This document shows, piece by piece, positions 1 to 37,884 of a stretch of 64,000 nt of DNA. The translations under genes and the position numbers were made by a program. Position 1 is the stretch's first letter. Each line of letters begins with the position of its first letter. The notes under the pieces were generated by a model, which saw only the letters and a program-made list of their open reading frames with translations, was not told the DNA's origin and searched no databases. The stretch lies in sequence record MZ358387; one strand, written 5' to 3'. The stretch is from Shigella virus Moo19.

Positions 1-215
1 TGATGGTGACGATGTGATTCTTGCTGTACCCCGCCCAGTGGCTAGTGGCGGGACCGATTAACTAAAGGGCTTTCCACCTCCTTACCCGTTTAGCTAAAGG
101 CTAATAACTACCACAGTCAGGGTTCCTCGGCTCCTTTGACTTAAGACTGCAATCTTAAGTTTAACGGTACATAAGTACCTAGAGGGATGAACTGACCCGA
201 TACTGAAGTCGGTCA

Positions 216-252
216 GGGGCATAGTCGAGAGGCTATGCCCCATTTCTTTTTA
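216..252 (+). terminator. Stem-loop (9-bp stem ggggcatag/ctatgcccc, 8-nt loop) followed by T-rich tract, just upstream of first ORF
   Basis: Inverted repeat read directly; atttcttttta follows. Confidence 0.4.
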
Positions 253-263
253 TAGGAGCTATC

Positions 264-674
264 ATGGACATCTACGGTCTTGATATAGAAACACAGACAC
301 AAAAGAAAGAAGCTGACCCATACGTGATAGGTTCAGCTCAGTTCTTCGCCACCATCTTTGGTAACAAACACGCTATCCTTCTCCCAGATTGTGAAGAATC
401 CCACGAACTAGTAGGTTGCTGGCTGTTAGACAACATCCCACTAACCACTCGTATCATGAAGCAAGGTGAGACTATCATCTACAATCTGGAAGACTATGGA
501 ATACAAGAGGATGGTCAGTACACATGGATGCCACCTACTTACTTTATTCCACTGCCTGACTGGGAACTCATAGCTTCTCACGACGTATTCAAAAGGCAGA
601 TTGCTATCTACTTCCGTCCACGCCCTACCTGGAGAAAGAATCCATATGCAAGTCCAATTAATCTGTCGCAGTGA
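264..674 (+). CDS. Hypothetical early protein, member A of tandem small-ORF paralog family (SHELVGCWLL motif)
   Basis: ORF track; aggag RBS at 255-259; shares H-E-(V/L/F)-x-G-x-L-L motif with downstream ORFs. Confidence 0.4.
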   Translation: MDIYGLDIETQTQKKEADPYVIGSAQFFATIFGNKHAILLPDCEESHELVGCWLLDNIPLTTRIMKQGETIIYNLEDYGIQEDGQYTWMPPTYFIPLPDWELIASHDVFKRQIAIYFRPRPTWRKNPYASPINLSQ

Positions 675-1011
675 TAAAGATTCTGATGTAGTAAACGCAT
701 TAGAAATTCCATTCGACTTCTTTAGTCATGAGCTACACCTGAGCCAAGTAATCCTGGTTCCCTCCCTTGAGCATTATCATGAAGTTCAGGGGCAACTGTT
801 AATCAATGGTGTGACTGCTAAAGTAATCTGCATTCTTCCACCATCCCAATATCAGCCACCAGTTGGAAGTGTTCCTTATGCACTAGTCACTGATGACTAC
901 GTTGCTAAGTGTGACCCACTGCCTAATGTTGGTAAGTACAACGATACTTTAAATCTTACTTATTATTTCGAGAAGAAAGATGCAGCTACAACTAACGAGG
1001 TTCATGAGTAA
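646..1011 (+). CDS. Hypothetical early protein, paralog family member B (YHEVQGQLLINGVTAKV)
   Basis: ORF track 601-1011; first in-frame ATG beyond most of the overlap with upstream ORF is 646. Confidence 0.4.
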   Translation: MQVQLICRSDKDSDVVNALEIPFDFFSHELHLSQVILVPSLEHYHEVQGQLLINGVTAKVICILPPSQYQPPVGSVPYALVTDDYVAKCDPLPNVGKYNDTLNLTYYFEKKDAATTNEVHE

Positions 1012-1288
1012 CCCTCATAACTTATCTCTAGTGCACCCGGACGCAGAACCTTATCTATTAAGTGACGTTGGTTATGTACTCAGCGGTGAGTCCAAAGTCG
1101 TTATGCTTACCAGTGAGTCAGCTAACCTATTCCTCGTTGAGTGCATGATGCGGGGTGTCAATGCTGATATCACCCTCAAGGAACCAGGTGAGAAAGTATA
1201 TGGTGGCCTGCTCTGCTACTTAATACATAGTCCGCATGAGTATCCTGACTACGATAATGATGGTTATGTCTGGATAAGGAGGCCGTAA
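1004..1288 (+). CDS. Hypothetical early protein, paralog family member C (ends WIRRP)
   Basis: ORF track 980-1288; ATG 1004 overlaps upstream stop (ATGAGTAA). Confidence 0.45.
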   Translation: MSNPHNLSLVHPDAEPYLLSDVGYVLSGESKVVMLTSESANLFLVECMMRGVNADITLKEPGEKVYGGLLCYLIHSPHEYPDYDNDGYVWIRRP

Positions 1289-1563
1289 TGTTTGCCTATT
1301 TTGTACGCTCTACTTACGATGCCTACCACGGTATGCTATCCATCAAGTTAGAAGTAGGGCAACACTGGCCTACTTTTGAACCAGGAACAGCAGCTATTTG
1401 GGTTCATCCTGACATAGACTTTCATGAAGTACAGGGTGACCTGTTACTTCGGGGTAAGACAGCTAAGCTGATGGAATGTCCTCCGAACTATCGAATAAAA
1501 GAGAGTGGCATATTCATCCTGGCTCATAGTTACAGTAATGCACTGGAGTTACTGCGTCCATGA
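1288..1563 (+). CDS. Hypothetical early protein, paralog family member D (FHEVQGDLLLRGKTAKL, ends LLRP)
   Basis: ORF track; start overlaps upstream stop (TAATG). Confidence 0.5.
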   Translation: MFAYFVRSTYDAYHGMLSIKLEVGQHWPTFEPGTAAIWVHPDIDFHEVQGDLLLRGKTAKLMECPPNYRIKESGIFILAHSYSNALELLRP

Positions 1564-1922
1564 ATCTCTTCCTAATACCCCCTATGTCCTGTAATCCGCT
1601 TAAGCTGGTGGGCGAACAACCTACCTGGGATAGACTTGGCGTAACTAAAGAGACTGTCCTGTATGAACCAAGTGAAGAAGCACACGAGTTCATTGGTCAC
1701 TGTCTCATGATAAGTAGTGAAATACAGTTCAAGTCTCTTGCTGAACCAGTAGAAGTAAGGGAACAGGATAAGGTTTATGTAATAGGGCATCACTATCCTG
1801 ATGTATGCACCACCTTACAGGGCAGGCTTATCAGGCTTACTGATGAGAGTACCTGCATCCAGTGTACCTGCTATCACCCCTGCCCTTCTTCAAAGAAGGT
1901 TATCTACCCACTGGATATCTAA
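1560..1922 (+). CDS. Hypothetical early protein, paralog family member E (AHEFIGHCLM), Cys-rich C-terminus
   Basis: ORF track; ATGA overlap with upstream gene. Confidence 0.45.
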   Translation: MNLFLIPPMSCNPLKLVGEQPTWDRLGVTKETVLYEPSEEAHEFIGHCLMISSEIQFKSLAEPVEVREQDKVYVIGHHYPDVCTTLQGRLIRLTDESTCIQCTCYHPCPSSKKVIYPLDI

Positions 1923-2210
1923 ATGAATCTTACTAAGATACACGTTACTCCTACTAAGATGGTTAACTGTCCTATAACTAAAAAGTTATTTACTGTATCC
2001 AGTGACATACTCATTCTTGTACCAGACCTGGATAGCTTTCATGAAGTGAAAGGACAGGAGATGTTACTCAATAAGAAATGGGAAGTTCATCTACTTGAAC
2101 CAGGAAAGGAACTTAGGTGGCTGGGTATGTACAGTCCCTGGCATCTTAATACGGATAGCTACCGTCTTACCTTTACTGACCATATTGCTGTATATACTCC
2201 ACGCCCCTAG
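1923..2210 (+). CDS. Hypothetical early protein, paralog family member F (FHEVKGQEMLL, ends YTPRP)
   Basis: ORF track; tttcatgaagt nucleotide motif shared with members B and D. Confidence 0.5.
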   Translation: MNLTKIHVTPTKMVNCPITKKLFTVSSDILILVPDLDSFHEVKGQEMLLNKKWEVHLLEPGKELRWLGMYSPWHLNTDSYRLTFTDHIAVYTPRP

Positions 2211-2595: not shown

Positions 2596-2608
2596 CATGC
2601 TCCGCATG
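2596..2608 (+). promoter_or_regulatory. Tri-loop hairpin catgc-TCC-gcatg (bottom strand GC-GGA-GC); candidate N4-type vRNAP early promoter hairpin
   Basis: Perfect 5-bp stem, 3-nt loop; same core as hairpins at 3584 and 7442; upstream of ORF 2652. Confidence 0.35.
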
Positions 2609-2651
2609 GTATGGACATGTCGTCCTTATCATTAACTATTGGAGCTATACA

Positions 2652-2972
2652 ATGACTACTACTGCTAACGTACGTATGACTGCTGGAACTTTACTGGGTA
2701 CTGTAAATGAAGCAGCTACTACTATTGCTGATACCTTTGGTACTGCAACTAAAGCTGTTGGTATGCTGAACTCATATGTCACTACTATGAGTGAGAAACA
2801 ACGTATTCGTACTAAATTGGAAATGCATACATTTACCAATAAATTAGCTGAAGAAACAGCTATGCAAGATACTATCCGTAAGAAAGCTATCGTAGAATTC
2901 TGCAAAGATGAAAAGAATGCTGAACTCTATAAAGCATCTTACGATGATGTAATGGCACTGTTATCTAAATAG
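2652..2972 (+). CDS. Hypothetical protein (106 aa)
   Basis: ORF track frame 2382-2972; ATG 2652 has ggag RBS 8 nt upstream; upstream part of track ORF is repeat-rich intergenic DNA. Confidence 0.4.
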   Translation: MTTTANVRMTAGTLLGTVNEAATTIADTFGTATKAVGMLNSYVTTMSEKQRIRTKLEMHTFTNKLAEETAMQDTIRKKAIVEFCKDEKNAELYKASYDDVMALLSK

Positions 2973-2981
2973 TAAAATAAC

Positions 2982-3010
2982 GGAAGACTCCTTGGAGTCT
3001 TCCTGTTTTA
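2982..3010 (+). terminator. Rho-independent terminator (9-bp stem ggaagactc/gagtcttcc, loop cttg, then tgtttta)
   Basis: Read directly. Confidence 0.6.
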
Positions 3011-3013
3011 AAG

Positions 3014-3032
3014 ATTAGATAGTCAATCTAAT
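3014..3032. promoter_or_regulatory. Palindrome attagat-agtca-atctaat containing 14-mer ttagatagtcaatc (second copy at 3529-3542)
   Basis: 7-bp inverted repeat read directly; lies just after a terminator and upstream of ORF 3063. Confidence 0.4.
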
Positions 3033-3062
3033 TTGAATAAATAGTTAAAAGAGAATCCTACT

Positions 3063-3209
3063 ATGAGCAAACTAAAAAACGCATTTATCCTGATTGTCAG
3101 TATCCTTGCACTTGTTACTTTGGTTTCCGTTCACATTGGAAAACCTCTGGTAAACACTGACTATGGTAATGGTCAAAAAGTAAAATCCATCCTGTTAGCG
3201 GATAAGTAA
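3063..3209 (+). CDS. Small putative membrane protein (48 aa, MSKLKNAFILIVSILALVTLVSV...)
   Basis: Hand-translated; hydrophobic N-terminal segment; below the 60-aa cutoff of the ORF track. Confidence 0.3.
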   Translation: MSKLKNAFILIVSILALVTLVSVHIGKPLVNTDYGNGQKVKSILLADK

Positions 3210-3276
3210 AAACCGCATCTAGAAACTGGGCTGTTCCACAGCTTACGGATACATTTCAACCAATTAGGAGGCATCC

Positions 3277-3492
3277 ATGAACGTAGAAAATATCCGTATA
3301 ATTGAGAATTGCTTTGGTGATAAACCAGTAGACCTCAGCAACGCAAGAAGGTCTACAGATGAAGAATACAGAGAGTTTTTATCCTTACTCGATGAATATC
3401 ATATGCAAGGGCATGTTGAATTACATGCCCATCTGCATAACTCAGGCTACTTCATGGATAAACTGGAAGCTGAGACAGGCTGTCCATTCTAA
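3277..3492 (+). CDS. Hypothetical protein (71 aa)
   Basis: ORF track; strong RBS aggagg upstream. Confidence 0.45.
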   Translation: MNVENIRIIENCFGDKPVDLSNARRSTDEEYREFLSLLDEYHMQGHVELHAHLHNSGYFMDKLEAETGCPF

Positions 3493-3499
3493 GTAAAGC

Positions 3500-3526
3500 A
3501 TTCCCTCTTAGGAGGGAATTAGCCAT
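3500..3526 (+). terminator. Terminator-like hairpin (attccctc-ttag-gagggaat)
   Basis: 8-bp inverted repeat read directly; weak T tract. Confidence 0.4.
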
Positions 3527-3528
3527 CT

Positions 3529-3547
3529 TTAGATAGTCAATCAAAAG
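3529..3547. promoter_or_regulatory. Second copy of 14-mer ttagatagtcaatc in an imperfect palindrome
   Basis: Identical 14-mer to 3015-3028. Confidence 0.4.
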
Positions 3548-3583
3548 TAGATTGTGATTCTACTTTAGTTCAACTTCAAAACC

Positions 3584-3600
3584 AAGACGCTCCGCGTCTT
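3584..3600 (+). promoter_or_regulatory. Tri-loop hairpin aagacgc-TCC-gcgtctt (7-bp stem); candidate vRNAP early promoter hairpin
   Basis: Perfect inverted repeat; GC-TCC-GC core shared with 2596 and 7442. Confidence 0.35.
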
Positions 3601-3705
3601 AAGGATGTATGAGTGCATCCAATCCTGTATGAAATCTTAGTCCTTTGTTTGGGTATGTTCACCGACGAGCGTACCCATAAATCACATTTATCTGGAGAGT
3701 ATAAA

Positions 3706-4089
3706 ATGTCTATTAAAACTTTTGGTCAAACTTTCGGTTCTGCTGTTGCTAACAAACCTGCTGCAACTGAACGTCCTAAAGCTAAATTCTGGCTGAACGT
3801 TGGCTATACAGCTAACGAAGGCACAGAAGAAGCTAAGTTCATCTCACTGCCTACTGGTATTCCACTGGATACTCAGGAGCATGTAAGCACTAAGTCCAGC
3901 AATGCTGACTTCCGTGCTATGCGTTGTGCTCAGAACGACCTGCTTGACCAGCTTCTGGCATTTGCAGAAGGTCTGGAACCAGGTGAAGAAGGTGTCATTC
4001 AACTTCAGGTTCAACTTCGTCGAGTCAAAGAAGAAGAAGCTGACATCCCAGCAGACGAGAATAAATATGCTCGTAAGCTGACTTTCTAA
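3706..4089 (+). CDS. Hypothetical early protein (127 aa)
   Basis: ORF track frame 3613-4089; ATG 3706 with ggagag RBS; followed by strong terminator. Confidence 0.5.
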
Positions 4090-4098
4090 TCACTAACT

Positions 4099-4127
4099 GG
4101 ACTCCCTTCGGGGAGTCCTTTTATTTT
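4099..4127 (+). terminator. Rho-independent terminator (ggactccc-ttcg-gggagtcc + T tract)
   Basis: Read directly. Confidence 0.7.
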
Positions 4128-4232
4128 AACTCAGCGATAAACTAAGTTTAACTTTTAGGAGCTTTTCGACGAAGAGTCACTAAAACTTAAACGTAAACAC
4201 AAGCAGATAACTTAGAGTAAGGAGTAATCAAG

Positions 4233-4418
4233 ATGCGTGTACTATGTAACCGTTATAATCCGACTAGGTTAATTAACATAATGGCTATGTATGGTAGCAA
4301 GATGGCTTATGATGCTCGTTGGCAGGTATCTGTAGAAGATAGAGATGGTCAGCATTATGACCACTACTTCACAGCTAAGCCAACTCGTAAACAAATCCGC
4401 AAACTTCACAAAGGATAA
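4233..4418 (+). CDS. Hypothetical protein (61 aa)
   Basis: ORF track; RBS taaggag upstream. Confidence 0.4.
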   Translation: MRVLCNRYNPTRLINIMAMYGSKMAYDARWQVSVEDRDGQHYDHYFTAKPTRKQIRKLHKG

Positions 4419-4422
4419 TGCT

Positions 4423-4575
4423 ATGAAGCTACTGGCAGAGATTCTATGTATTTTATTAATGATACTGCTGGTAGCTGCATTTCCGTGGCTATTAGCCGTA
4501 GGCGTAATTATTGGCATGTTCGCAGCCGGAGTGAATGATGCTCGTGGCAGAGATGAACCAGGTGGAGACGTATAA
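4423..4575 (+). CDS. Small membrane protein (50 aa, MKLLAEILCILLMILLVAAFPWLLAVGVIIGMF...)
   Basis: ORF track frame 4345-4575; ATG 4423 with aagga RBS; hydrophobic. Confidence 0.4.
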   Translation: MKLLAEILCILLMILLVAAFPWLLAVGVIIGMFAAGVNDARGRDEPGGDV

Positions 4576-4576
4576 C

Positions 4577-4657
4577 ATGGCCTATGTAATCATAGTTGTT
4601 GCGTGGTTAGCTGTTGGTGTATTCGTAGGTATGGCATTCGGGAGAATGGCTAAATGA
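4577..4657 (+). CDS. Possible tiny hydrophobic peptide (26 aa, MAYVIIVVAWLAVGVFVGMAFGRMAK)
   Basis: Hand-translated; tightly packed between neighbours; speculative. Confidence 0.2.
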   Translation: MAYVIIVVAWLAVGVFVGMAFGRMAK

Positions 4658-4845
4658 TTGAATTTAAGGTAGGCGATATAATTGAACCAATAGAGGGATT
4701 CCCACAGTGGAAAGGTATAACAATACTTGAGTGGAATCCTATTACTCGTGATGCCTCAGTTAAGCTTAAATCCGGTACTGTTATACATGGTTTTAATCTA
4801 GACCCTGACTATGGAGTTGAATTCAAATGCGTAAGTCCATCTTAA
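4654..4845 (+). CDS. Hypothetical protein (63 aa)
   Basis: ORF track; ggag RBS. Confidence 0.4.
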   Translation: MIEFKVGDIIEPIEGFPQWKGITILEWNPITRDASVKLKSGTVIHGFNLDPDYGVEFKCVSPS

Positions 4846-4989
4846 TGGGAACCAGAGAAGATGTTATTAAGCGTCGTGCTAAACAAGTTACTGCTCAATC
4901 AGTGCCTGTTACTGGTTATAGTAGAACATATAACAGTAAGCCTAAGCAGTATATCGTAACTTTCAATCATCCTTGTATTCAATAATAGT

Positions 4990-5017
4990 GGCTCCCATTA
5001 GGGAGCTTCTATTTTTT
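4990..5017 (+). terminator. Terminator (gctccc-atta-gggagc + T tract)
   Basis: Read directly. Confidence 0.5.
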
Positions 5018-5031
5018 ATTTAGAATAGTTA

Positions 5032-5062
5032 GTCCCGAAGGGACAATCTTACGAAGTAAGAT
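5032..5062 (+). promoter_or_regulatory. Two adjacent GAA tri-loop hairpins (gtccc-GAA-gggac; atcttac-GAA-gtaagat)
   Basis: Perfect inverted repeats read directly; function unknown. Confidence 0.3.
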
Positions 5063-5095
5063 TAGACATAGATAGATATAGGAGAAACTATTAAA

Positions 5096-5404
5096 TTGTT
5101 AAATGAAATCATCTGTATTCCACAGAATAAGGCTCGCATTGCAGATAGGAATATTCGTATTCATCTGCCAATGCCATTAGCTAACCCATTCAGTAAGTCT
5201 GAAAGACTGAACCAGGATGATGTAGATGTGGCTTATGAGGCATATCTGCGTAATCGTCTTATCTCAGGCGATAAGCTAATCACTGCTGAAATGGAAAAGA
5301 TTGCAGGCTTTGTCATGGACAAAACAGGCAAACCTGTAGGACTGATAGGCAATGAGCCAGAGGTAAATGTAATACGTAAACTTATTATGGAGGCTATTGG
5401 ATAA
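5096..5404 (+). CDS. Hypothetical protein; N-terminal half resembles DUF4326-type motif (LANPF...AYEAYL) seen in ORF 6220
   Basis: ORF track (non-ATG start at 5096 implied); start uncertain. Confidence 0.35.
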   Translation: MLNEIICIPQNKARIADRNIRIHLPMPLANPFSKSERLNQDDVDVAYEAYLRNRLISGDKLITAEMEKIAGFVMDKTGKPVGLIGNEPEVNVIRKLIMEAIG

Positions 5405-5625
5405 TGATTCTTAATCCTAATTACCGTACATGTGAAATATGTGGTAAACACAGGGCTAAGGGAAATCATAATAAGTGTTCACGTATACTACAGAAGCAAC
5501 GTAATAATGCTGAACAAGCATTAATATTAGAGAACCAGAGGAAACACGAAGAGTACATCTCTGTTCGTAAGGCTTCTCTAAACAAATTTAGAAGGAAACC
5601 ATTTATACGTATAAGTAAAGGTTAA
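5404..5625 (+). CDS. Hypothetical basic protein with CxxC...H...C (possible zinc-binding)
   Basis: ORF track; composition. Confidence 0.35.
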   Translation: MILNPNYRTCEICGKHRAKGNHNKCSRILQKQRNNAEQALILENQRKHEEYISVRKASLNKFRRKPFIRISKG

Positions 5626-5627
5626 CT

Positions 5628-5912
5628 ATGAAAGTAATCACCTATCCTACTCATAAAATAGCACTCTACATGGGACAAAAAGTAGAAGTTCCATTATGGG
5701 TTAAATATTTAGCAGTACTTCCAATGATGTATGGTCATTCAAGTTCTGCACTAATTGGCTTCAGCCATAAACCCAAATTCACTAAGACTGGTATTTGGAA
5801 AATATCATCTCAGTATAAGAACACTAAGCAGGAACAAATAGGCATAGTCCGTAACTTTGCTCCTGCTAAAAATGAAATTGAAGCTACTCTAAGTGAGGTT
5901 CTATTACCATGA
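5628..5912 (+). CDS. Hypothetical protein (94 aa)
   Basis: ORF track. Confidence 0.4.
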   Translation: MKVITYPTHKIALYMGQKVEVPLWVKYLAVLPMMYGHSSSALIGFSHKPKFTKTGIWKISSQYKNTKQEQIGIVRNFAPAKNEIEATLSEVLLP

Positions 5913-6223
5913 CTACCATCGTAGTATTGCATGACACCACATTCAAAGATGTGGATAAGATGATGAACAATATAGACTATGTTGCTCAGCATTCTAAAGC
6001 ATTCAATGGGGAGTTCACTATTTATTGTGAACCAGAATCTCCATTGGCTCCTGTATTAAAAGAAGCAGGGCTTCCGTTCAGTACTACTGACTTCCCAGAA
6101 GAACCTGACTTCGTTATCTCATTCATCTACGATTTACACGACGGTTCTAAAGCCAGTGAACTGGCAATGAACCAGTGGAAGTCTCGCCGTCCTGTATGGC
6201 CTTTCCAGGTACTGAAACCATGA
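5909..6223 (+). CDS. Hypothetical protein (104 aa)
   Basis: ORF track; ATGA overlaps with neighbours. Confidence 0.4.
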   Translation: MTTIVVLHDTTFKDVDKMMNNIDYVAQHSKAFNGEFTIYCEPESPLAPVLKEAGLPFSTTDFPEEPDFVISFIYDLHDGSKASELAMNQWKSRRPVWPFQVLKP

Positions 6224-6600
6224 AGACTATCTCATTAGGTGACGATACCAATGCTTTGCTGGGTGTAGCTGCACGTCCAATCATCATTGTTAATAAACAT
6301 CATGGTAAACCGGGTGAGTATATTGGACGTGGTTCACCATTGGGTAATCCATACCCAATTGGTGATAAATACAACCGTCAACAAGCTATTGCTATGTATC
6401 GTGTCTGGCTGCAAGAACAGATTGATAAAGGTAATCCAGTTGTACTGGATGAACTTAATCGTCTGGGTAATAAAGCCATTGACGAAAAAGGACTGGCCTT
6501 ACAGTGCTTCTGTTATCCGAAACCATGTCATGGTGAGGTTATTAAAGAGAAGCTCGTAGAGGCTATGTACAACTACTTTGTGGAGAATCCAAATGAGTAA
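6220..6600 (+). CDS. DUF4326-like protein (GRGSPLGNPY ... CFCYPKPCHGEV)
   Basis: Motifs GNP and C-x-C-x-P-x-P-CHG recalled as DUF4326 signature; ATG 6220 overlaps upstream stop. Confidence 0.5.
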   Translation: MKTISLGDDTNALLGVAARPIIIVNKHHGKPGEYIGRGSPLGNPYPIGDKYNRQQAIAMYRVWLQEQIDKGNPVVLDELNRLGNKAIDEKGLALQCFCYPKPCHGEVIKEKLVEAMYNYFVENPNE

Positions 6601-6787
6601 GCAATGTAAATGTGGTAAAGGCTATGTATCCCAATGGGATGATAAGTGTGGTAAATGCCGAACCAAGAAGGAACAGCGTGACCATCAAATAGCTTTAAGG
6701 GACTTAGACCTGTATATCGCAGGTCGTCCAGAATTTAATATGACTCCACAAGAAGCCTATAAAGGCTTAAGGAAACTGTACAAATGA
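6593..6787 (+). CDS. Small zinc-ribbon-like protein (CKCGKG...CGKC)
   Basis: ORF track frame; ATG 6593 with ggag RBS; two Cys pairs. Confidence 0.4.
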   Translation: MSKQCKCGKGYVSQWDDKCGKCRTKKEQRDHQIALRDLDLYIAGRPEFNMTPQEAYKGLRKLYK

Positions 6788-7167
6788 AAGAAATATTCGT
6801 ATTCGGTTCTAATCTGGCTGGTGTACACGGTGCTGGTGCAGCTAAGACTGCATATAAGAAGCACGGTGCTCGTTGGGGTATGGGCGTAGGCCATTATGGT
6901 TGCAGCTATGCAATTCCAACTAAAGACCAGAACATCAAAACAATGGAGTTGGTTGATATCGCTGTATTTGTATCTGCCTTCATCCTGTATGCAGCAGCAC
7001 ACCCAGAGTGGGACTTCAAAGTAACACGAGTAGGTTGTGGGCTGGCTGGCCTGTCTGATAAAGACATGGCATTCATGTTCTTACCTGCAACAGGTAATGT
7101 CATGTTTGATGAAGCATGGAAACCTTATTTAGGTGATACCTATAACTACTGGGGTACATTCGAATGA
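6784..7167 (+). CDS. Gly-rich Rossmann-like motif protein (FVFGSNLAGVHGAGAAKTA...GCGLAGL); possible nucleotide-binding (SLOG/macro-like?)
   Basis: Motif only; family assignment uncertain. Confidence 0.35.
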   Translation: MKEIFVFGSNLAGVHGAGAAKTAYKKHGARWGMGVGHYGCSYAIPTKDQNIKTMELVDIAVFVSAFILYAAAHPEWDFKVTRVGCGLAGLSDKDMAFMFLPATGNVMFDEAWKPYLGDTYNYWGTFE

Positions 7168-7436
7168 CCTATGAAGAATTATGGGCTGCTCAAGTAAGAA
7201 GTAAGGCGAGAGCCTTTGCTCATGTCTACAGCACATTGCAGCATCTTATTAAAAGCAGAACCAAAGCTGGACATATACATGGTTACTACAAAGAAGATTG
7301 TATTCCCGATGGTGACTACCTATGGGATAAAAGAATCCGTCACGAGAGTGACATTATAAAAGTGAATATTGCTATTCATTCATACCCACCAAGGGGTAAT
7401 CGCTACCTATCTATTCACTTTTATACAAAGCGTTAG
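7164..7436 (+). CDS. Hypothetical protein (90 aa)
   Basis: ORF track. Confidence 0.4.
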   Translation: MTYEELWAAQVRSKARAFAHVYSTLQHLIKSRTKAGHIHGYYKEDCIPDGDYLWDKRIRHESDIIKVNIAIHSYPPRGNRYLSIHFYTKR

Positions 7437-7441
7437 GTAAT

Positions 7442-7460
7442 AGCTGCTCCGCAGCTTTTG
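7442..7460 (+). promoter_or_regulatory. Tri-loop hairpin agctgc-TCC-gcagct followed by TTTT; candidate vRNAP promoter hairpin or short terminator, 30 nt upstream of RNAP II genes
   Basis: Perfect 6-bp stem, TCC loop; same GC-TCC-GC core as 2596 and 3584. Confidence 0.35.
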
Positions 7461-37484: not shown

Positions 37485-37566
37485 GGGGGAGTAGTCAAGC
37501 GGTCGAAGACGGCAGACTGTAAATCTGTTATCCCACACGGTAGTTCGAATCTACCCTCCCCCACCA
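37485..37566 (+). tRNA. tRNA-Tyr (anticodon GTA), 10-nt variable region, CCA encoded
   Basis: Hand-folded cloverleaf: acceptor GGGGGAG/CTCCCCC, T-loop TTCGAAT, anticodon loop CTGTAAA. Confidence 0.65.
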
Positions 37567-37567
37567 C

Positions 37568-37642
37568 GGTAAGTTAGCTAATTGGTGAAGCGGCTGACTG
37601 TTAATCAGTGATAGAGTGGTTCGAGTCCACTACTTACCGCCA
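37568..37642 (+). tRNA. tRNA-Asn (anticodon GTT), CCA encoded
   Basis: Hand-folded: acceptor GGTAAGT/ACTTACC, T-loop TTCGAGT, anticodon loop CTGTTAA. Confidence 0.7.
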
Positions 37643-37647
37643 CATTA

Positions 37648-37724
37648 CGGAGTTTAGCTCAGTCTGGTAGAGCATCTGCTTTGGGAGCAGAGGGTCGTAG
37701 GTTCGAGTCCTGCAATTCCGACCA
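37648..37724 (+). tRNA. tRNA-Pro (anticodon TGG), CCA encoded
   Basis: Hand-folded: acceptor CGGAGTT/AATTCCG, D-arm GCTCAGTCTGGTAGAGC, anticodon TGG. Confidence 0.7.
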
Positions 37725-37730
37725 AACAAT

Positions 37731-37806
37731 TAGGGGTTAGTTCAGTTGGTAGAACATCGGACTTTGATTCCGAATGTCACAGGTTCGAATCCTGTACCCC
37801 TTGCCA
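37731..37806 (+). tRNA. tRNA-Gln (anticodon TTG), CCA encoded; position 1-72 is T-T (unpaired)
   Basis: Hand-folded: D-arm GTTCAGTTGGTAGAAC, anticodon loop CTTTGAT, T-loop TTCGAAT. Confidence 0.6.
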
Positions 37807-37808
37807 AA

Positions 37809-37884
37809 TGCTTCATAGCTTAGTAGGTAGAGCACACCCCTGATAAGGGTGAGGTCATTGGTTCAAATCCAATAACGGACGCCC
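37809..37884 (+). pseudogene. tRNA-Ile(GAT)-like element with non-complementary acceptor stem (possible pseudo-tRNA)
   Basis: D-arm, anticodon arm (CACCC-CTGATAA-GGGTG) and T-arm are canonical, but 5' TGCTTCA cannot pair with 3' AACGGAC. Confidence 0.4.

Follow-up and report, generated by a model that had tools for sequence, protein, structure and literature searches.

A conserved pseudoknotted RNA fold between the gp70 and gp71 homologues of Shigella virus Moo19

The gp70–gp71 spacer

The first 263 nucleotides (nt) of a 64,000-nt stretch of Shigella virus Moo19 DNA (sequence record MZ358387; the whole stretch is referred to here as the window) contain the spacer between two small genes, and the RNA element that fills this spacer is the subject of the present analysis. 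The phage is N4-like, a podophage (subfamily Enquatrovirinae) with structural genes at ~78% nucleotide identity to Gamaleyavirus genomes (Bp4, G7C, PhAPEC5) by megablast. Alignment with G7C and other relatives identifies positions 1–17 (+ strand) as the 3′ end of a gp70 homologue cut by the window start, with last residues MVTM and a TGA stop codon at 15–17; a close metagenomic relative, L186, has a complete 105-amino-acid gp70 ending RMMVTM-TGA on those bases. The non-coding spacer is therefore 18–263. The following gene (264–674, +) encodes a gp71 homologue of 136 amino acids (phrog_9160, no known function), the first in a run of paralogous small genes.

The spacer, from 18 to 263, is a conserved, + strand-specific, pseudoknotted RNA fold at this cistron boundary. 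A preliminary description made from the sequence alone had presented 1–263 as a structured leader with three inverted repeats and a terminator-like hairpin. All of these are present, with coordinates slightly offset; its placement “before the first gene” was an artefact of the window start, since the leading bases are the last codons and stop of an upstream gene.

Location relative to the genome end

In a sensitive DNA search of phage records, positions 95–289 of the window were matched at 74–79% identity by one place in each of 57 records. This place is the spacer between gp70 and gp71 homologues (e.g., G7C 70540–70730), which is found near the right end of N4-like genomes (G7C 70504–70704, N4 69364–69573, KP8 70534–70789), and not near a left end, the condition set in the preliminary description. 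The spacer is 246 nt long in the window, 210 nt in N4, and 256 nt in KP8. At the DNA level it is 75–79% identical to Gamaleyavirus spacers, while the gp71 protein is just 33–40% identical, and the coding DNA flanking 95–289 was barely detectable in the same search; conservation is thus higher in the non-coding DNA than in the neighboring genes.

Within the first 3 kb of the window, megablast matched Gamaleyaviruses solely over ~2458–2936 (81–85% identity). This segment corresponds to gp1 and the start of the 1160-bp G7C terminal repeat (71758–72917), and also matches the left-end copy of that repeat. The annotated repeat start in G7C (71758) falls at ~2509 in the window, ~2.25 kb downstream of the element, so the physical left end of this genome is predicted to be near 2509, and the MZ358387 record appears to have been opened elsewhere than at the true terminus. 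By this reckoning the element would lie upstream of the predicted left end, within the rightward gp70–72 cluster at the right end of the genome, and would be no terminus.

Three hairpins of the type used as promoters by the N4 virion RNA polymerase were found downstream of the repeat start, all on the + strand: 2596–2608 (CATGC-TCC-GCATG), 3585–3601 (AAGACGC-TCC-GCGTCTT), and 7441–7455 (AGCTGC-TCC-GCAGCT). All have a TCC loop, GC closing pairs, and a G ~11 nt past the loop center, and the heptamer GCTCCGC occurs exactly three times in the window. These hairpins are predicted to mark the true early region. The N4 early promoter is described as a 5–7-bp stem with a 3-nt loop and, on the template strand, a purine at −11, G at −10, G at −8, and C at +1 (PMC4496689). 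Hairpin loops within 1–263 are 11, 15, 6, 4, ~8, and 4 nt long; none fits this definition, in loop size or in the defining bases, and an N4-type hairpin promoter within 1–263 was rejected. The suggestion of an early regulatory structure thus holds in so far as the region is a structured, conserved, and probably regulatory leader ending in a terminator before a ribosome binding site, and fails in that the early promoters lie downstream, at 2596–7455.

The suggestion of a packaging or terminal-repeat role fared less well. A signal of this kind is expected at a terminus or duplicated at both ends; the region is internal in G7C, N4, and KP8, and its distance to the terminal repeat varies (~1.05 kb in G7C, ~2.25 kb in the window). 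A left end or terminal repeat within 1–263 was rejected on the G7C, N4, and KP8 homology together with the positions of the true early promoters. The preliminary description had asked whether the region was far from the physical end and unconserved; it is indeed away from the end, and it is strongly conserved.

A pseudoknot after the gp70 stop codon

For structural comparison, 29 distinct N4-like versions of the spacer were gathered by homology and then aligned; they were not chosen by pseudoknot complementarity. The first inverted repeat of the preliminary description forms stem S1 (CCCGCC 30–35/GGCGGG 47–52, + strand), closing an 11-nt loop, CAGTGGCTAGT (36–46). S1 is kept in all 29 sequences, with its outer pair exchanging among A-U, G-U, and C-G. 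Its CCGCC/GGCGG is invariant in 22 lineages, including the unrelated phages described below, and the motif occurs once in the 64-kb window. Taken alone, the 30–52 hairpin is not significant by folding energy (z = −1.05); conservation and covariation are what support it.

Nine bases of the S1 loop, GUGGCUAGU (38–46, with C42 bulged), are complementary to eight bases, ACUACCAC (107–114), that start inside a TAATAAC box (102–108), and both strands change together. The pairing of 38–46 with 107–114 makes this an H-type pseudoknot in which the AAUA of the box is the 3′ end of loop 3 and its AC begins the second stem, S2. The S2 helix is 98.3% paired in the N4-like alignment. Its four variable pairs have all changed on both sides. 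At about 8–9 bp, S2 is free to vary in sequence, in contrast to the invariant S1: its strands are GUGGCUAGU/ACUACCAC in the window, GUGGAUAGU/ACUUCCAC in L186, GUAGACAGU/ACUUCUAC in G7C, GGAGUUGGU/ACCACUUC in N4, and GGAGAAGGU/ACCUCUUC in KP8. AAUAAC follows S1 in all family members except for one lineage, which has AGUAAC. The pseudoknot begins 6–12 nt past the gp70 stop codon; in L160, one of the unrelated contigs considered below, the upstream open reading frame (ORF) ends ~70 nt away.

Loop 3, between S1 and the TAATAAC box, houses small hairpins that differ by lineage. In the window this optional insert (62–93) is a weak hairpin (−5.4 kcal/mol, no better than shuffles) whose 15-nt loop (70–84) holds CACCUCCUUA (75–84), identical to what is presumably the 3′ end of 16S rRNA; the 9-mer ACCTCCTTA is found once in the window. 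KP8 and L152 have ACCUCCUUA and CCUCCUUA in a loop at the same place, and G7C and N4 have short unrelated hairpins at this site, without a 16S-like copy.

Two other readings of this part of the spacer were rejected. Programmed frameshifting or stop codon read-through into the pseudoknot does not fit, with a TGA-TAA double stop in N4, no slippery heptamer, and extension frames closing within 12–16 codons or at a TAG in the loop. A kink-turn or box C/D interpretation of GAUGA...CUGA, checked manually only, has its strands arranged off consensus.

Over the whole window, the octamer TAATAACY is found 13 times (e.g., at 102, 12544, 18860, and 29735), against 4.6 expected, a count reached in none of 100 shuffles; it may stem from double stops where genes end, or from a signal.

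Fold of the whole spacer

Downstream of the pseudoknot, RNAalifold recovers, besides S1, two long-range helices, P1 and P2, the hairpins hpB and hpC, and a terminator, all on the + strand; a third hairpin of the fold is hpA. P1 pairs GUCAG (116–120) with CUGAC (192–196), and P2 pairs GUUCCUC (122–128) with GAGGGAU (182–188); both helices are also supported by pair counts. They are nested and close a three-way junction bearing two hairpins and a CUCCUU box. The box is part of GGCUCCUUU (129–137), the second anti-Shine-Dalgarno-like sequence of the spacer, which is invariant in the N4-like alignment. The hairpins of the junction are hpA (139–160) and hpB (166–179). hpA is the second repeat of the preliminary description, ACTTAAGA/TCTTAAGT at 139–146/153–160, an 8-bp stem with the 6-nt loop CUGCAA; hpB (GGUAC-AUAA-GUACC) had not been listed there. 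hpC (197–212), with a CCGA/UCGG core and a GA-rich loop, lies between the junction and the terminator (216–251).

As + strand RNA, 62–263 has a folding z-score of −4.0, compared with −2.2 for the complementary strand. Among single elements, the lowest score is that of the terminator (−6.7), followed by 139–160 (−4.2), 166–179 (−3.7), and 192–216 (−2.5). Across the 29 N4-like sequences, 98.8% of 1362 cells of the whole structure, pseudoknot included, are paired, vs. 36–44% when the partners are slid by 1–3 columns; ten pairs have changed on both sides, vs. 0–4 in the slid controls; and the covariation score is 0.141, vs. at most 0.025. In P2, the column pair 112/178 is CG in 16 sequences, GU in 6, and AU in 5, and 114/176 is CG in 26 and UA in two, the window and L186. 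The second pair of hpB is GC in 15 relatives and AU in 14, and the hpC pair 194/203 is UA in 26 and AU in 3. P1 is GUUCAGA/UCUGAAC in Jgk1 and L152 and GCUAC/GUAGU in N4 and KP8. The stem of hpA has been swapped wholesale among relatives with the hairpin retained (CCUAC-UCC-GUAGG, CCAAC-CCA-GUUGG, CCUGA-UUCG-UCAGG, CUAAGA-UUGCAU-UCUUAG), and N4 and KP8, which no longer align with the window, fold into the same architecture nonetheless. Conserved G-U pairs (columns 109/181, 111/179, and 219/226) would become A-C mismatches on the opposite strand, and the fold is therefore specific to the + strand.

The third repeat of the preliminary description, CTGACC/GGTCAG (192–197/211–216), is present but perfect only in this lineage (the window and L186); most relatives have GGTAAG in place of GGTCAG. 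Together with P1 pairing of the Jgk1 type, this indicates that the conserved partner of CUGAC (192–196) is 116–120. The alternative pairing of 192–196 with GGUCAG (211–216), possible in this lineage, is predicted to be a lineage-specific feature that would compete with the conserved helix P1.

A minus-strand ORF at 94–243 (49 amino acids) was rejected as coding, given that relatives carry indels there, including a 1-nt gap.

Terminator and transcription

The terminator-like hairpin was correctly placed by the preliminary description directly ahead of a ribosome binding site. It has the form of an intrinsic terminator (216–251, −22.1 kcal/mol): an 11-bp stem (216–226/231–241) with seven G-C pairs, a GAGA loop, and then AUUUCUUUUU, the U-run that in DNA letters reads ATTTCTTTTT (242–251). 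The Shine-Dalgarno (SD) sequence of the next gene, AGGAG (254–258), begins 2 nt past the U-run and is followed by the ATG at 264. The terminator is kept with compensatory changes across the 29 relatives, four stem pairs having changed on both sides, and is annotated as such in PhAPEC5 and PhAPEC7. All Enquatrovirinae versions of the spacer end in a strong intrinsic terminator with a U-run that abuts the next SD sequence. With no space for a promoter between the two, read-through is the sole route to the gp71-family genes. The gene after the element differs among close relatives: L138 and L152 have a paralogue where others have gp71, so the element goes with the boundary rather than with one gene.

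A promoter scan found no sigma-70 promoter inside 1–263, and TTGACT at 136–141 was rejected as a −35 element, having no acceptable −10 and not being conserved. Upstream of gp70, relatives have a sigma-70-like TTAGAC-N15–17-TACAAT, read by eye.

The intergenic region between the divergent gp69 and gp70 genes of relatives also has a conserved hairpin, TTCTTTTCTT-GGGGT...ACCCC-TTG, which precedes the TTAGAC/TACAAT-like hexamers. It lies outside the window and was located at 140–175 of L002 (G7C), 835–870 of L142 (N4), and 1900–1935 of L138.

Occurrence in unrelated phages

S1 followed by AAUAAC was also found in two IMG/VR contigs, L149 and L160, that are unrelated to N4-like phages. An IMG/VR scan with the pattern CCGCC-YA-N9-GGCGG-N0–30-AATAAC found 83 stretches. 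In ~20 further lineages among these, the loop complements the strand that follows AAUA, and the S2 sequences are wholly different, e.g., GCUGUGAGU/ACUCCAGC, GGCCAGGGU/ACCCGGCC, and GCUAGUGGU/ACCACUGGC. Loop-to-target duplex energies are bimodal, with family members at −6.5 kcal/mol or below and most other pattern matches at −4.3 kcal/mol or above. A 22-lineage alignment of the module, with membership decided in part by this complementarity, shows 100% pairing and compensation at each of the four variable pairs; its covariation score is 0.35, vs. 0.09 in shuffles and at most 0.084 with slid partners. The loci assigned to the wider family, from IMG/VR and genomes, are L149, L160, L189, L193, L196, L199–L202, L207, L233, L236, L250–L252, L257–L259, L261–L263, and L266.

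Similarities extend beyond the pseudoknot. Of 29 family members, 17 have CUCC 14–19 nt past S2 and 26 have it within 80 nt; control counts were 8 of 34 for control matches and 5 of 29 for the region upstream of S1. A helix corresponding to P1 starts 0–2 nt past S2, and after its closure unrelated members have “GAC” and a hairpin, equivalent to hpC, with a GAAAGA or GUAA loop. The CUCC spacing, the helix after S2, and the GAC plus hairpin thus point to a shared core independently of the way members were chosen.

A scan of bacterial genomes found copies in prophage-like regions of Snodgrassella and in Rhodanobacter and alphaproteobacterial assemblies, all with 12-nt loops; the pattern used specified a 12-nt loop, and copies with 11-nt loops will have been missed. 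A 14-mer scan of IMG/VR returned almost exclusively chance matches, and BLAST of compact family members against named phages returned nothing, or just an adjacent tRNA.

The element lies between two co-directional genes in all cases, often 5–30 nt past a stop codon and shortly ahead of an SD sequence. Neighbors identified by Pfam are endonuclease VII, a Cro/CI-type helix-turn-helix protein, RdgC, ThyX, and DUF669, with RecA-, SSB-, and terminase-like ORFs read from sequence; the sites are in replication, recombination, or regulatory modules. About half of the family members have a terminator-like hairpin after the element, unrelated examples being L193, L207, L200, and L262. The presence of the same RNA core inside replication and recombination modules of unrelated phages argues against the terminus or packaging role once proposed for 1–263, and the element is very probably a structured RNA conserved in a wider phage family rather than a feature of a genome end.

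In L149 and L200, tRNA genes are found within ~200 nt after the element.

Comparison with described RNAs

Apart from chance hairpin matches, positions 1–320 of the window matched no Rfam 15 family, at gathering thresholds or at E up to 10, and the same was true of G7C, N4, KP8, and the compact member L201. A match to the fluoride riboswitch reached 13.1 bits against a threshold of 34; it used gp70 coding bases and was gone without them. A tRNA, tmRNA, or tRNA-like structure, prompted by the D-arm-like S1 loop, the TAATAA “tag end”, and the L149 tRNAs, was rejected on negative ARAGORN and Rfam results; ARAGORN found no tRNA or tmRNA in 1–263 or in the G7C, N4, KP8, L138, L152, and Jgk1 loci. 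No description of the element was found in the literature, although a catalogue of more than 10,000 unnamed structured RNA candidates from phages could contain it (PMC10690425).

In general outline the element resembles compact H-type pseudoknots (preQ1-I, SAM-II, and fluoride riboswitches, viral frameshift elements) in its GC-rich stem 1, a loop pairing with a downstream strand, and the short A-rich AAUA linker, positioned to run beside stem 1. It differs in having no covariance-model match, an S2 of 8–9 bp, and possibly controlled genes that are unrelated to one another, with recoding impossible. Like a riboswitch it sits upstream of a terminator and an SD sequence, and its conserved fold is aptamer-like. 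A metabolite riboswitch would also be expected to have a mutually exclusive terminator and antiterminator and to control one consistent class of genes; no covarying antiterminator was seen, and the downstream genes are unrelated across the family. The T4 gene 32 operator is likewise an H-type pseudoknot in a phage leader, and L199, L200, and L160 adjoin SSB-like genes; in the N4-like phages, however, the neighbors are gp70 and gp71 and not SSB, the sequence and loop geometry are different, and the element may be up- or downstream of the SSB gene depending on the member.

Immunity region I of phages P1 and P7 encodes the c4 antisense RNA, which is co-transcribed upstream of its target and has exposed loops that can pair with the ribosome-binding region of the gene after it in that operon. 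This may be the best functional analogy for the CUCCUU box, but there was no Rfam c4 match at E up to 10, the fold is different, and no a/b repeat pairs were found. In the lambdoid layouts cro-nutR-tR1 (lambda) and cro-putR-tR1 (HK022), a small gene is followed by an RNA signal, a terminator, and further genes. The N4-like arrangement is similar in having a conserved RNA signal before a textbook terminator (216–251) with read-through-dependent genes after it. However, the element is a ~190-nt pseudoknotted multi-helix fold, with neither boxA/boxB nor two put stem-loops, and N4-like phages have no N protein.

The element is a candidate for a new structured RNA family. A clear search signature is available for annotation: CCGCC-YA-N9-GGCGG ... 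AAUA-AC-N6–7, with N9 complementary to the strand after AAUA.

Possible roles of the element

The best overall explanation, at a probability of about one half, is that this is a + strand RNA element between the gp70 and gp71 homologues that gates the next gene. A cis-acting gate at the cistron boundary can be proposed only tentatively as the mechanism. The element would be transcribed together with gp70; the terminator would stop most transcripts, leaving the gp71-family genes to be reached via read-through; and the folded 5′ domain would set the amount of transcription and translation that passes. It could do so through an effect on the elongating polymerase, or with the CUCCUU box masking or releasing the downstream SD sequence.

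Several observations weigh against this explanation. A covarying antiterminator that would compete with the terminator was looked for in vain. In about half of the unrelated family members the element is not followed by a clear terminator, so termination is not the universal function of the family and the core may have a more general activity. The lowest-energy fold of the window does mask the SD sequence, pairing GGCUCCU (129–135) with AGGAGCU (254–260), but it excludes P1 and P2, the helices supported by covariation; and the CUCC box pairs with any SD sequence, which puts this pairing beyond a covariation test. A consensus promoter scan called no gp70 promoter in G7C. Finally, the 100% pairing in the 22-lineage alignment is inflated by the way in which its members were picked, a problem that does not affect the 29-sequence N4-like set.

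Some of the same features would suit an RNA acting in trans. A stable non-coding RNA of 150–230 nt could be processed from the gp70 3′ untranslated region and act through its CACCUCCUUA and CUCCUU loops on host or phage ribosome binding sites, or as a decoy for a 16S 3′-end factor. The U-tailed terminator closes a compact fold, as in small RNAs derived from 3′ untranslated regions; the CUCC box is conserved; and the 10-nt copy of the 16S 3′ end is in a hairpin loop, is unique in the window, and has counterparts at that position in KP8 and L152. This 16S-mimic hairpin is, however, optional and missing from G7C and N4, many family members lack the terminator that would define a 3′ end, and the constant position directly ahead of a gene start fits action in cis. 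Another N4-like phage, LUZ7, produces abundant small RNAs from an intergenic region (PMC9163698), but the motif is absent from that region and homology with those RNAs was rejected. Overall, a trans-acting RNA seems unlikely. So, and rather more so, does an RNA processing element, whether a self-cleaving ribozyme or a nuclease recognition structure, that would separate the cistrons and leave a protected end. An intercistronic, single-copy element on the same strand as its neighbors, with unrelated flanking genes (endonuclease VII, helix-turn-helix, RdgC, ThyX, DUF669, terminase), is a setting typical of self-cleaving ribozymes in phages, and the core is compact and pseudoknotted with invariant unpaired nucleotides (AAUA, AG, CUCC, GAC). 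Against this, the Rfam search gave no ribozyme match with E allowed up to 10, no specific position of cleavage can be pointed to, and the conserved CUCC box has no obvious catalytic role.

Antitermination of the put type, in which the nascent pseudoknot would bind the host RNA polymerase and allow read-through of the following and later terminators, would agree with the lambdoid gene order noted above, with the lack of any gene-specific association, and with the invariance of S1 and AAUA over phages of very different hosts, which suggests a conserved host partner. It is nevertheless improbable: the complete HK022 genome has the S1 plus AAUAAC hallmark on neither strand, so the element is not put; a terminator right after a constitutive antiterminator would be purposeless unless antitermination were conditional; and half of the family has no terminator to read through. 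Least probable, and by a wide measure doubtful, is a role at the DNA level, as a replication origin or priming site, a packaging or terminus signal, or an N4-type hairpin promoter. The N4 terminal repeat is ~390–440 bp long, and the N4 spacer is estimated to lie a few hundred bp upstream of the right copy (the repeat is unannotated in the N4 record). The spacer adjoins the terminase genes gp68 and gp69, family members are found in replication and recombination modules of unrelated phages, and G-T pairs are tolerated in single-stranded DNA too. The element is also a set of short hairpins in an N4-like genome, and hpA of G7C (CCTAC-TCC-GTAGG) has the 5-bp stem and 3-nt TCC loop of an N4 promoter, but with A instead of G at −8 and T instead of C at +1 of the template (criteria of PMC4496689); the equivalent hairpin in the window has an 8-bp stem and a 6-nt loop. 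Moreover, the element and the terminal repeat are not a constant distance apart, the orientation is always that of the flanking genes, the element ends in an RNA-type terminator with a U-run abutting an SD sequence, and a multi-helix pseudoknotted fold would be unusual for a DNA signal.

If it does gate the next gene, the element would account for expression of the rightward gp70–72 accessory genes of N4-like phages, a question not settled by current accounts of N4 transcription. Multi-helix pseudoknotted RNAs kept across unrelated phages are rare, and past cases have usually been riboswitches, ribozymes, or ligands of host machinery. A more speculative proposal, itself unlikely, is that the module (S1 CCGCC/GGCGG, AAUA, P1, CGRCUCCUU, and GAC plus hairpin) is the core of an undescribed class of phage RNA with its own activity, either a new self-cleaving ribozyme or a binder of a universal host machine (RNA polymerase or a 16S 3′-end factor), that would punctuate or gate polycistronic transcripts in phages of hosts from Escherichia to Snodgrassella and GC-rich uncultured bacteria. 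In practical terms, the element is single-copy, is present in the tractable coliphages N4 and G7C, and offers clear compensatory-mutation tests. For annotation, the spacer should be regarded as a conserved RNA feature rather than a genome terminus.

Neighboring genes and other features of the window

Downstream of the element, 264–2210 (+) is occupied by six small ORFs (264–674, 646–1011, 980–1288, 1288–1563, 1560–1922, and 1923–2210). Several of them share a (L/V)P(D/S)xE(E/S)xHE(L/V)xG-like motif with gp70 and gp71 of N4 and G7C, and G7C gp70 weakly matches the PHROG of the ORF at 1923–2207. Together with gp70 they look like a tandem paralogue array, expanded relative to N4 (gp70–72).

Farther along the window, ARAGORN identified a tRNA cluster at 37485–37873 (+) with Tyr, Asn, Pro, and Gln tRNAs. 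A fifth tRNA match, to Rfam, at 37816–37873 covers model positions 8–63 only and may be a truncated or unusual tRNA. In a megablast search with 40000–64000, the best matches to two phage records were 95–99% identical and that to one other was 90–95% identical, while long matches were at ~78%; the high-identity matches are probably short near-identical segments shared with other phages, possibly mobile or recombinant.

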